From assembly GCF_017348835.2 (NCBI RefSeq), contig NZ_CP071375.1: DNA of 64,000 nucleotides. One strand, 5' to 3'. The position numbers were made by a program. The stretch comes from Escherichia coli (GTDB lineage: Bacteria > Pseudomonadota > Gammaproteobacteria > Enterobacterales > Enterobacteriaceae). Shown in pieces: positions 3,001 through 9,000 of the stretch (positions are counted from its first letter, which is position 1; each line of letters begins with the position of its first letter).

Positions 3001-6000
3001 GAACAGCCGGAATACCGCATCTGTTTTCTCACGAATGTTCTGTTCCTGTGCGGGAGAAGGCTGAATACCTGCCATATCCCATTCATGGCAGGGTTCCGTT
3101 TTGTCGGCCTGCGTCACCACAAACAGCACCTGCTGATGTCCGCACTGCAGGATCTGTCGCCAGAAATACTCATCCACAGACAAGGCACGGTCATCGGCTT
3201 TAATCAGCCACAGTACCAGGTCCAGTTCAGGCAGAATGTCACGGTACAGGGCTTCATACTCTGCATCCCTGTCCCGGCTCTCGCCCACCCCGGGCAGGTC
3301 AGTGATAACCATGCTGTGACCGTGGCCACTCAGACGGAAGCGCCGTACTTCCTGGGTGCCGGCGTGAACATCACTGACCGGGGTGACCTCCCCCTGAAAC
3401 AGTGCATTACAGAGTGAGGATTTACCGGCCCCGCTTTTACCCATAATGCCAATCACGGGTTCGTGACTGGTGAGTTTACGCAGATGTTCCAGGATGTGAC
3501 GGGAAAGTGAGTAAGGCAGGGAGGAAAGCGGTTTTTCAATTGCCTCAATGGCATCAGACGGATTCATACATGTATTCCCGGTGAAAAAAGACAAAACCCC
3601 GCGCACCGGAAAGGTGGCGGGGGATTCACGGCGATAATATCTGTCTGAAATTGTTTTGAATCGATGGGATTGTTGCGTATTAACATGAAGGAGATCAGGA
3701 CTTATCCGTTACTGGGTGATCTCCTTCCATGAAAATACGCGGTTATTGTTAAACAGCAGGCTGATTACTCCGTAAAGGAGAAAAATATTCATCTTGCAGC
3801 CTGATTATCAGGTGTGTTTATGTTTACTGAGGTGAGTATTTTTCAGTATATTGTCGGGGCAGTCAGTGGGAGATATTAAATTTACGTTTAGAGTTATCTT
3901 GCTTCTGCTGTGTATTTTTATAAGAGTGCGCACGTAATGATATCTGTTGATACCATGTTGTTAAGTGTTTCCCTTCCGGGTCATGCGTACTTGCAAAATG
4001 GCATCTGAATCGATCACGGTTTGGCCAAACCGTGATCGAATAGAGAGGAATACGCACGTAATGATTAAATGCTTTTGTTACACCATTCTTCCGGCATGAA
4101 TATTTATCCAGTTCCCTTTTTTATTTGTGTAGTGATACTGTCGGAATAGCGTTCAGTAATGTGAAGTGTCCTGTTAAAAATCTTTAATAAATGTGTCACC
4201 CTGGTCAGGAAATATCTGCTGAGATATTATTAGTTGGTGGGTAAGCGTACAGCCTGAACCGTCTGGTCAGAATCTGACGAATTAGACAAAGTGGTGTCCA
4301 CCAAATAAGTAGTGGGAACCAAAGTATCAGATATGCAGAAAAATGTGACTCCCGGCAGGCGAAAAGGCTGCCCTAATTATCCTCCCGAATTTAAACAGCA
4401 GCTCGTTGCTGCCTCCTGTGAACCCGGGATATCCATCTCAAAACTTGCTCTTGAAAATGGCATTAACGCCAATCTGTTGTTCAAATGGCGACAACAATGG
4501 CGCGAGGGAAAGCTGCTATTACCTTCTTCAGAGAGCCCCCAGCTACTTCCTGTGACTCTCGATGCAGCTGCCGAACAGCCAGAATCGCTCGCAGAGGACC
4601 CGGAAACCCTCAGTATCAGCTGTGAGGTAACGTTCCGGCACGGGACGCTCCGCTTCAATGGCAATGTCAGCGAAAAGCTCCTGACTCTGCTGATACAGGA
4701 ACTGAAGCGATGATCCCGTTACCTTCCGGGACCAAAATTTGGCTGGTTGCCGGTATCACCGATATGAGAAATGGCTTCAACGGCCTGGCTGCGAAAGTAC
4801 AAACGGCGCTGAAAGACGATCCCATGTCCGGCCATGTTTTCATTTTCCGGGGCCGCAGCGGCAGTCAGGTTAAACTGCTGTGGTCCACCGGTGACGGACT
4901 GTGCCTCCTGACCAAACGGCTGGAGCGTGGGCGCTTCGCCTGGCCGTCAGCCCGTGATGGCAAAGTGTTCCTTACGCAGGCGCAGCTGGCGATGCTGCTG
5001 GAAGGTATCGACTGGCGACAGCCTAAGCGGCTGCTGACCTCCCTGACCATGCTGTAAATCTCTTTATCCTGGTTGTCACAGAATAAGCCCGGTAAAATAC
5101 GGGCTTATGAACGACATCTCTTCTGACGACATCTTCCTGCTGAAACAGCGCCTGGCCGAACAGGAAGCGCTGATCCACGCCCTGCAGGAAAAGCTGAGCA
5201 ACCGGGAGCGCGAAATAGACCATCTGCAGGCGCAGCTGGATAAACTCCGCCGGATGAACTTCGGCAGTCGTTCCGAAAAAGTCTCCCGCCGTATCGCACA
5301 AATGGAAGCCGATCTGAACCGGCTTCAGAAAGAGAGCGATACGCTGACTGGTAGGGTGTATGACCCGGCAGTACAGCGTCCGTTGCGTCAGACCCGCACC
5401 CGTAAGCCGTTCCCTGAATCACTACCCCGTGACGAAAAGCGACTGTTGCCTGCGGCGCCGTGCTGCCCGAACTGCGGCGGTTCACTGAGCTATCTGGGCG
5501 AGGATACCGCCGAACAGCTGGAGTTGATGCGTAGCGCCTTCCGGGTTATCCGGACGGTACGGGAAAAACATGCCTGTACTCAGTGCGATGCCATCGTGCA
5601 GGCACCTGCACCTTCGCGGCCCATCGAGCGGGGTATCGCCGGACCGGGGCTGCTGGCCCGCGTGCTGACCTCGAAGTATGCAGAGCACACCCCGCTGTAT
5701 CGCCAGTCAGAAATATACGGCCGGCAAGGTGTGGAGCTGAGGCGTTCACTGCTGTCGGGCTGGGTGGATGCATGCTGCCGGCTGCTGTCTCCGCTGGAAG
5801 AGGCGCTTCATGGCTATGTCATGACTGACGGCAAACTCCATGCCGATGATACCCCGGTCCAGGTACTGCTGCCGGGTAATAAGAAGACGAAGACCGGGCG
5901 GTTGTGGGCGTATGTTCGTGATGACCGCAATGCAGGGTCAGCGTTGGCACCTGCAGTGTGGTTCGCTTACAGCCCGGACAGAAAAGGCATCCATCCGCAG

Positions 6001-9000
6001 ACTCATCTTGCCTGCTTCAGCGGTGTGCTGCAAGCGGATGCGTACGCCGGGTTCAACGAGCTGTATCGCAATGGTGGGATAACGGAAGCTGCCTGCTGGG
6101 CTCATGCCCGCCGAAAGATCCACGATGTGCACGTCCGCATCCCGTCAGCACTGACGGAAGAAGCCCTGGAGCAGATCGGTCAGTTGTACGCCATAGAGGC
6201 GGATATAAGGGGAATGCCGGCAGAGCAGCGGCTTGCTGAACGTCAGCGAAAAACGAAACCGCTGTTGAAATCCCTGGAAAGCTGGTTGCGTGAAAAGATG
6301 AAGACCCTGTCGCGACACTCAGAGTTGGCGAAGGCGTTCGCGTACGCACTTAACCAGTGGCCGGCACTGACGTACTATGCGAACGATGGCTGGGTGGAAA
6401 TCGACAACAACATCGCTGAAAATGCCCTGCGGGCGGTCAGTCTGGGTCGTAAAAACTTCCTGTTCTTCGGCTCTGACCATGGTGGTGAGCGGGGAGCGCT
6501 ACTGTACAGCCTGATCGGGATGTGCAAACTGAATGACGTGGATCCAGAAAGCTACCTTCGCCATGTGCTTGGTGAACCGCCCCGGAAATCCTGGAGACTA
6601 AACTCCCTGAGAAAGAGGTAAACAGGATGACTAAAAATACTCGTTTTTCCCCCGAAGTCCGTCAGCGGGCGATTCGTATGGTTCTGGAAAGTCAGGATGA
6701 ATATGACTCACAATGGGCGACAATTTGTTCCATTGCTCCAAAGATTGGCTGTACGCCGGAGACTCTGCGTGTCTGGGTTCGCCAGCATGAGCGGGATACC
6801 GGGAGTGGTGATGGTGGACTCACCACCGCTGAACGTCAGCGTCTGAAAGAGCTGGAACGTGAAAATCGTGAACTGCGCCGCAGTAACGATATCCTTCGCC
6901 AGGCTTCCGCTTATTTTGCGAAGGCGGAGTTCGACCGCCTCTGGAAAAAATAATGCCACTGCTGGATAAGCTGCGTGAGCAGTACGGGGTCGGACCGGTA
7001 TGCAGCGAACTGCATATTGCCCCGTCAACGTATTACCATTGTCAGCAACAGCGACATCATCCGGATAAACGCAGTGCCCGTGCGCAGCACGATGACTGGC
7101 TGAAGAAAGAGATACAGCGCGTATACGATGAAAATCACCAGGTATACGGTGTGCGTAAAGTCTGGCGTCAGTTGTTACGGGAAGGTATCAGAGTGGCCAG
7201 ATGCACTGTGGCACGTCTCATGGCAGTTATGGGACTTGCCGGTGTTCTCCGGGGTAAAAAGGTCCGCACTACCGTCAGCCGGAAAGCCGTTGCCGCATGC
7301 GACCGCGTAAACCGTCAGTTCGTGGCAGAACGTCCAGACCAGTTGTGGGTGGCTGATTTTACCTGGGTAAGCACATGGCAGGGCTTCGTTTATGTGGCGT
7401 TCATCATTGATGTGTTCGCCGGATACATCGTGGGATGGCAGGTCTCATCATCCATGGAAACAACATTCGTGCTGGATGCACTGGAGCAGGCGTTGTGGGC
7501 CCGTCGGCCGTCCGGCACAATCCATCACAGTGATAAAGGTTCTCAGTATGTATCGCTGGCCTACACGCAGCGGCTTAAGGAAGCCGGATTACTGGCATCA
7601 ACAGGGAGTACTGGCGACTCGTATGACAACGCGATGGCGGAGAGCATCAATGGTCTTTACAAAGCGGAGGTAATACACCGTAAGAGCTGGAAAAACCGTG
7701 CAGAAGTGGAACTGGCCACACTCACGTGGGTGGACTGGTATAACAATCGACGATTGCTGGAAAGGCTGGGCCATACTCCCCCGGCAGAAGCAGAAAAAGC
7801 TTATTATGCTTCCATCGGAAACGATGATCTGGCAGCCTGAGTTCACAGATAAAACACTCTCCAGGAAACCCGGGGCGGTTCATGGCGTCATAGCAGACTG
7901 GCCGGTCAACCGGGTCAGCGAACTGCTTCCGTGGCGCATAGCACTGCCAGCTGAATAACACATCCCCGTCAATACGGCCCTCGCTGTACGCTTACGAAGT
8001 TAATACCGTTTTGTCTGTTTTTTTAACAAAGAAAATAATCCTGGAGTAGGTTCCCGGGCATTTGCCCGGGATGATTACTGTTTTAATGGATTATTAATCT
8101 TTGCATATTCAAATGGACTGATAAATCTTTCTCTGTTTGCATCCAGAAAATCGGCCCACCACTGTAGCATCAGTCGCCGTTCTTCCAGATGTTCTGCTTT
8201 ATGAATGTAAGCAGCACGTACACCGTTACGTTCCTGATGGCTCATCTGACGTTCAACTGCATCGCGGGACCACAAACCTGATTCTATTAACGCACTACAT
8301 GCCATCGCCCGGAATCCATGACCACAGACATCCTGGGTTGTGTCATACCCCATAACCCTCAGGGCTTTATTTACGGTGTTTTCACTGATTGGTTTACGTG
8401 GGTCATGTGCTCCCGTAAAGATCAGACCATTTTCACCAGCCCATGTCTGAAGTTCTGCCAGTATGGCTACAACCTGTTTGCTGAGTGGCACAAGATGTGG
8501 TGTTCGCATCTTGGATCCCCGGTGTGAGAATTTTACGCCTGGCAGAGGTTCGCGTTCGGCTGGAATAGTCCACATGGCATTGTCAATATCAATTTCAGAC
8601 CAGCGGGCGTATCTGAGTTCACTGGAACGAATAAAAACCAGTAAATTCAGCATAACGGCAAGCTGGGTGACAGGTTGCCCCTTGTAACTGCCAATACGCG
8701 ACAAAAGTTCAGGCAGGCGAGAAAGATCAAGAGCGGGGCGATGCTGGCGTTTTACCGTAGTCAATGCGCCAGCCATATCCAGAGCAGGATTATATCTGAT
8801 GATGCCAGACTGTACGGCATAACGCATTACGGCAGATATTCTTTGCTGCAGACGACTGGCGATTTCATAAATTTGTTTAGCTTCTGCAGCACGAACAGGG
8901 ATAAGCAGGTCCGGGGTATTGAGTGTTGTGATATCCCGATTGCCGATAAAGGGGAATACGTGTGTCTCGAGGCTTTTGAGTACTTTATCGCTGTGTGATT

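Follow-up and report, generated by a model that had tools for sequence, protein, structure and literature searches.

The window is a 64,000-nucleotide stretch of Escherichia coli DNA (contig NZ_CP071375.1). It covers the integrase end of an island that carries the locus of enterocyte effacement (LEE, intimin beta) and lies at the tRNA-Phe gene pheU. The chromosome of strain PE164 (NZ_CP114128.1), taken as its reverse complement, is 100% identical to the window; PE164 is an E. coli pig isolate from Nanjing, for which the record gives diarrhoea and blood as source. The tRNA-Phe gene is the one that adjoins dicD/dsbD/cutA, namely pheU. Along the + strand the window shows espF, then remnants of a DUF5983 gene, cbeA, a DUF987 gene and a JAB-domain gene, then a GTPase gene, a composite insertion sequence (IS) element, the integrase gene and tRNA-Phe (Table 1). 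The composite element is a copy of ISEc8 (IS66 family) interrupted by IS629 (IS3 family). Its structure, its flanks and its probable history are the subject of this analysis.

Table 1. Features at and around the composite ISEc8-IS629 element (window coordinates; bp, base pairs; aa, amino acids; ORF, open reading frame; PGAP, Prokaryotic Genome Annotation Pipeline)
Feature	Position	Strand	Remarks
GTPase-family gene (YfjP/YeeP-like), intact	2695..3567	-	between ISEc8 and the flu/yeeR gap
Left flanking 8-mer GTTGGTGG	4233..4240		last 8 bases of the region upstream of the GTPase gene
Composite ISEc8 (IS66 family) interrupted by IS629	4241..7995	+	3755 bp = 2442 + 1310 + 3
ISEc8 left terminal inverted repeat GTAAGCGTACAGC	4241..4253	+	
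ISEc8 tnpA	4333..4713	+	126 aa by the PGAP start; ORF opens with GTG at 4312
ISEc8 tnpB	4710..5057	+	115 aa
Truncated tnpC frame	5107..6621	+	TnpC 1-489, 15 foreign residues read from IS629, stop
TGG, left target-duplication copy	6570..6572		
IS629 isoform (IS3 family)	6573..7882	+	exactly 1310 bp; same orientation as tnpC
IS629 orfA	6627..6953	+	108 aa; Pfam HTH_Tnp_1
ALIL frameshift-stimulating pseudoknot, orfA/orfB overlap	6908..7024	+	Rfam RF01497, RefSeq annotation
IS629 orfB	6953..7840	+	295 aa, DDE integrase core
TGG, right target-duplication copy	7883..7885		
Displaced tnpC 3' end	7886..7958	+	third base of codon 489, codons 490-512 (VIADWPVNRVSELLPWRIALPAE), stop
ISEc8 right terminal inverted repeat GCTGTACGCTTAC	7983..7995	+	
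Right flanking 8-mer GAAGTTAA	7996..8003		79 bp downstream of the integrase stop codon
Tyrosine integrase of the island	8075..9340	-	ORF and RefSeq annotation
tRNA-Phe (pheU)	~9538-9613		beyond the integrase

The original prediction, made from the sequence alone, had described the outer element as ISEc8-like and of the IS66 family, and protein profiles, PGAP naming and identity to other copies all agree with it. The three genes are consecutive in the order tnpA-tnpB-tnpC, as required for the IS66 family, and their products all score above the cut-offs of the NCBIfam IS66 models. TnpA matches Pfam HTH_Tnp_1 and the NCBIfam model for the IS66-like accessory protein TnpA (97.7 bits, cut-off 74). 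TnpB matches Pfam TnpB_IS66 (131 bits) and NCBIfam IS66_TnpB (120 bits), and TnpC carries the Pfam domains LZ_Tnp_IS66, zf-IS66, DDE_Tnp_IS66 and DDE_Tnp_IS66_C. The terminal repeats begin with GTAAGCG and are perfect over 13/13 bases at both ends. PGAP names the outer element 'IS66-like element ISEc8 family transposase' and the inner one 'IS3 family transposase', and labels the displaced 3' end of tnpC a partial hypothetical protein. Removal of IS629 and one TGG leaves 2442 bp with an open tnpC, just as had been predicted, and the restored TnpC is 512 aa long. This restored length, the termini GTAAGCGTACAGC...GCTGTACGCTTAC and the gene order are those of ISEc8 in O157:H7 and many other E. coli, and dispersed ISEc8 copies, among them the seven in CP015020, match the restored element at 99.8-99.9% identity. 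The window copy differs from them in a single TnpC residue (M472 versus T in most copies compared), in the lack of an 8-bp duplication, and in the split of tnpC by IS629 after codon 489.

The two 8-mers that flank ISEc8 had been noted as unmatched, and they are: GTTGGTGG and GAAGTTAA agree at 3/8 positions. We looked for ends placed elsewhere that would yield a duplication. Moving either end by as many as 10 bases produced no 8-bp repeat, and within 40 bases of the ends the two sides have no k-mer of 6 or longer in common. Control ISEc8 sites were fetched through the exactly conserved TnpB protein, which is present in 56,707 collection blocks. In CP015020, every full-length ISEc8 copy scored (7/7, at independent sites) is 2442 bp long, with the same ends and a perfect 8-bp duplication around it. 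The left terminus is identical to that in the window in six of the seven, and the remaining copy (L015) has one base different (GTAAGCGTACATC). Seven duplication-bearing copies with the same ends imply that the ends in the window are called rightly and that ISEc8 normally leaves an 8-bp footprint. The absent duplication in the window is a real anomaly, and the element is not a simple insertion.

Some other ISEc8 copies have irregular ends or flanks. One copy in CP015020.1 (L014, 3016-3050 and 5456-5490) begins with AAAAGCGTACAGC, not GTAAGCGTACAGC; with the start set at GCGTACAGC, TTAAAAAA stands on both sides. In this copy the left tip seems to be altered or shortened, with the duplication still present. 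A 2289-bp variant of ISEc8 with an internal deletion of 148 bp (element positions 2071-2218) occurs in M7424 (L003, 8002-10290) and in CP145099.1 (L010, 3032-5320). Its two copies have a common left flank, AAATAGTG, just past zinc-ribbon genes, and different right flanks (ATATAAAG versus TTTTGTTC). Both also lack a duplication.

We then compared the flanks with those of relatives; genome counts here and below refer to 5426 complete genomes searched. The empty site, in which window position 4240 would be joined to 7996, was found in none of them. The region upstream of the GTPase gene is present in ~800 genomes at ~98% identity. In JJ2434 and STEC2018-607, which are IS-free at the left flank, homology to the window ends exactly at 4240. 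From there, both continue into yfjI, a hypothetical gene, an alpA-like helix-turn-helix (HTH) gene, hha, and Gp2-family and zinc-ribbon genes. The IS-free left site in L004/L005 reads ...TTAGTTGGTGG followed directly by TGTTTTTACTGAG..., that is, GTTGGTGG joined to TGTTTTTACTGAG. On the right side, homology to IS-free relatives is back no later than 7998. In NT1F34 (pheU), SC418 (pheV) and SW07096 (a tRNA-Leu gene), IS-free islands whose integrases are related continue into a phosphoethanolamine-transferase gene, and the pheU island of NT1F34 (L020) has the uninterrupted target GAAGTTAA, read ...AAATACAGAAGTTAATACCG....

Since the flanks run into unrelated DNA from the IS boundary, each of them represents a different place in the island backbone, the left one on the yfjI side and the right one at the phosphoethanolamine-transferase gene. 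The comparison with IS-free syntenic islands had been proposed as a way to define what was deleted beside ISEc8. With flanks that are nowhere contiguous and homology that stops at the IS boundary, it establishes, at the level of sequence, a secondary rearrangement at the left end of the element. Judged from STEC2018-607 (L005, 9601-16001), at least ~6.4 kb of canonical backbone is absent.

The junction of the ISEc8 right end with the integrase region is found in 632 genomes, including EDL933 (O island 122, OI-122), E2348/69 (pheV island) and O111:H8, and the left junction in 42. What is left of ISEc8 in EDL933, E2348/69 and O111:H8 is a 133-bp fragment together with its last 660 bp, adjoining another IS66-family element, and in E2865 the left part of the element is cut by ISEc38. 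Because the left part is truncated differently across lineages, the left side of this ISEc8 is a recurrent point of rearrangement. At element position 2281 (the M472 codon) the remnants in EDL933, E2348/69 and O111:H8 carry the window allele, and the dispersed O157-type copies have C. Positions 2022 and 2237 are derived in the dispersed O157 copies, and 2281 alone is specific to the integrase-adjacent lineage. Together, the junction counts and the shared 2281 allele indicate that the integrase-side insertion is old and that the left junction was derived in one LEE-beta island lineage.

The closest parallels to the right side of the element are OI-122 of EDL933 and the pheV island of E2348/69. 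They have the same right junction, and their flank and integrase region is 99.4-99.5% identical to that in the window; the integrase protein (WP_001218841.1) is identical to that of the pheV island of E2348/69. The flanking 8-mer in EDL933 is GAAGCTAA, versus GAAGTTAA in the window. ISEc8 is reduced in both of these islands, whereas the window has a full-length copy whose left flank is new. They also lie at pheV and carry OI-122 cargo, and the window island lies at pheU and carries the LEE. The combination of IS629 and ISEc8 had been called typical of enterohaemorrhagic E. coli lineages. This is right in a loose sense: the host here came from a pig and is LEE-positive, and O157:H7, O111:H8 and the enteropathogenic strain E2348/69 have the ISEc8-integrase junction in common with it. 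ISEc8 and IS629 are the predominant insertion sequences in O157:H7 genomes (PMC7430833), where they have been cited as drivers of genome diversification (PMC3271280).

We consider it very probable that three successive events made the nested structure. First, a 2442-bp ISEc8 would have entered GAAGTTAA, 79 bp downstream of the integrase gene, in an ancestral Phe-tRNA island; this event is suggested by the wide sharing of the right junction. Second, in the common ancestor of one LEE (intimin beta) island lineage, a junction would have formed between the left end of that ISEc8 and a site 674 bp upstream of the GTPase gene, with loss or replacement of island backbone and two unmatched flanks as the outcome. 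Third, and in PE164 only, ordinary IS3-family transposition brought an intact IS629 isoform into the 3' end of tnpC; TGG was duplicated and TnpC lost its final 23 residues. Nesting of insertion sequences is a textbook phenomenon, and so is the lack of duplications in IS copies that have undergone secondary recombination or deletion.

The mechanism of the second event we infer. The route we favour, giving it an even chance or slightly better, is homologous recombination between the integrase-adjacent ISEc8 and a second copy inserted at GTTGGTGG, which may have been part of this island or of incoming DNA. Unmatched flanks, a break at the IS terminus and the loss of DNA that relatives retain are features shared with known products of IS-IS recombination and IS-flanked deletions; those differ from the window in that no parental or reciprocal structure was recovered for it. 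In E2865, the ISEc8 copy at the same integrase junction (L022, 5591-7150) has 10 differences from the window copy, three of which (sites 1502, 1694 and 1772) are common to the 2289-bp variant. This pattern suggests gene conversion or replacement between ISEc8 copies at a fixed site, and hints that homologous exchange of copies does take place at the locus.

One result weighs against the recombination route, which predicts two parental junctions. In one, the ISEc8 right end would lead into GTTGGTGG and the yfjI-side backbone (TGTTTTTACTGAG); in the other, AAATACAGAAGTTAA would lead into the left end of ISEc8 (GTAAGCGTACAGCC). Both were sought with a proper duplication and neither occurs in the genomes searched, which makes the route less probable, though an old event could still have left no such parent, and leaves the two-copy intermediate hypothetical. 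The mosaic of single-nucleotide polymorphisms within the element offers one lineage-specific site only (2281), so that one parent and two parents are not separable. The backbones of the relatives differ from one another, and it is from them that the size and content of the lost segment are deduced. The data also fit replacement by incoming DNA and internal deletion alike.

A doubtful but possible alternative is intramolecular transposition, in which the left end of ISEc8 would have attacked GTTGGTGG nearby, deleting the intervening island DNA and leaving no duplication. It would give the same product geometry, with an old flank in 632 genomes, a new one in 42, and a break exactly at the left terminal repeat. 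The element is full length and intact, as this route would have it, and no parent with a second copy was found, again as predicted, although for an old event this absence is weak evidence. The differences in E2865 point the other way, toward homologous exchange between copies at the locus. Adjacent deletions are typical of replicative elements. The transposition chemistry of the IS66 family is poorly characterised, and a 2026 paper, too, describes it as 'insufficiently characterized' (PMC12898284). ISEc8 is not known to produce adjacent deletions, which we count against the intramolecular route.

As to the third event, the original prediction placed a 1310-bp IS629 with TGG on both sides inside the 3' end of tnpC, and this is confirmed by the uninterrupted allele. 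At the same locus F2_81 is 99.95% identical and has a single TGG and no IS629, so the TGG duplication is genuine and not a chance match. The duplications made by IS629 are reported to be 3-4 bp long (PMC3271280). The inner element is 98.7% identical, across all 1310 bases, to IS629 deposited in phage BP-4795, above the minimum of 95% set for this assignment, and its terminal inverted repeats are TGAACCGCCCCGG. Length, orfA/orfB frameshift, ALIL pseudoknot and 3-bp duplication are those of the IS629/IS1203/IS3411 isoform group. The pseudoknot matches RF01497 over the full model length (120.3 bits versus a gathering score of 50). OrfB contains Pfam HTH_21, rve and rve_3 and scores 311.7 bits with NCBIfam transpos_IS3, and PGAP fuses orfB to orfA via a programmed frameshift. 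This IS629 copy appears intact. A related element, 96.7% identical to the one in the window, splits the integrase gene itself in the pheV island of M7424 (L003, 11083-13662).

The interrupted form of ISEc8 is found in a single genome, PE164. By sequence comparison, the IS629 insertion is recent and simple and restricted to this strain. One could suspect an assembly artefact, since both IS types are multicopy and prone to misassembly and the nested form is seen only once. A chimeric join is an unlikely source of an element of exactly 1310 bp with intact terminal repeats, a clean TGG duplication and a single TGG in the empty allele, and the PE164 record is a finished circular chromosome. We regard an artefact as very improbable.

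The idea that ISEc8 simply inserted at its present site, and that its duplication decayed by point mutation or its ends were miscalled, has next to no probability: it is refuted by the missing empty site, by flanks that lead into unrelated DNA in IS-free relatives, by the seven control copies with duplications and by the shifted-end test. Inversion between two inverted ISEc8 copies was also considered and rejected, as the reciprocal junction it predicts occurs in no genome, PE164 included. Apart from the composite element, the window and 49 kb across the LEE are also free of ISEc8 and IS629 sequence.

With IS629 in place, TnpC ends after residue 489, gains 15 foreign residues and has its last 23 residues displaced. 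The cut falls within PF13817 DDE_Tnp_IS66_C (TnpC 468-505), downstream of the DDE core (175-461) and of all residues that match the NCBIfam IS66 transposase model (TnpC 94-488). Loss of TnpC activity through this truncation is plausible, and the window copy probably now depends on transposase from other copies. The truncated protein keeps both the DDE core and the whole NCBIfam model region. The orthologous ISEc8 of F2_81 has a 1-bp deletion near L002 8259 (window 5499) that frameshifts tnpC, and PE164 is intact there. The same ISEc8 copy appears to have been inactivated independently in two ways, by a frameshift in F2_81 and by IS629 in PE164.

Within one LEE island lineage, the ISEc8 of the window records the position of an old rearrangement breakpoint, and the IS629 inside it is a marker specific to strain PE164. 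The right junction (632 genomes) and the left junction (42) might serve as simple lineage markers for the evolution of LEE and OI-122 islands. It is conceivable, though we think it rather unlikely, that the integrase-adjacent ISEc8 of Phe-tRNA islands is a recurrent homologous 'docking' point for swapping whole cargo modules. If so, the LEE here and the OI-122-type effector cargo in O157, O111 and E2348/69 would have been swapped behind a conserved integrase-ISEc8 module, and this would go some way to account for the mosaic make-up of the LEE/OI-122 islands in attaching-effacing E. coli. Public records already annotate ISEc8 and IS629 here, and in themselves the two elements are ordinary insertion-sequence biology with little import beyond annotation.

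The rearrangement at ISEc8 had also been said to fit the missing flu/yeeR and toxin genes nearby, and here the original prediction fails: no IS lies at either gap junction. The flu/yeeR gap (~2381) is 1.86 kb from ISEc8 with the intact GTPase gene between them, the cbtA gap lies at ~1580, and the genes missing beside ISEc8 are another set (yfjI, alpA-like HTH, hha, Gp2-family and zinc-ribbon genes). Window positions 1294-2381 are one copy of a 1088-bp direct repeat with 99.9% identity, whose partner lies ~38 kb away across the LEE (L023, 28423-29510; NZ_CP114128.1, 4518422-4519509). The repeat contains the remnants of the JAB-domain gene, the DUF987 gene, cbeA and the DUF5983 gene. Its partner adjoins the true island end, with DUF957, DUF4942 and an integrase fragment, followed by cadC. 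Both gaps fall within or at the edge of this repeat, and by this sequence comparison the flu/yeeR 'gap' is its boundary. Because both copies have the same cbtA deletion, the deletion is older than the duplication. Neither IS had a part in the flu/yeeR and cbtA gaps, which are separate events. Integration of a LEE-bearing circle through one homologous crossover could have produced the repeat, which would make RecA-dependent loss of the LEE possible.

At the start of the window, the PE164 annotation marks espF (69-596) as frameshifted or incomplete. The gene has the expected tandem internal repeats, which appear as shifted self-matches of 195-447 versus 336-588 at ~85% identity.

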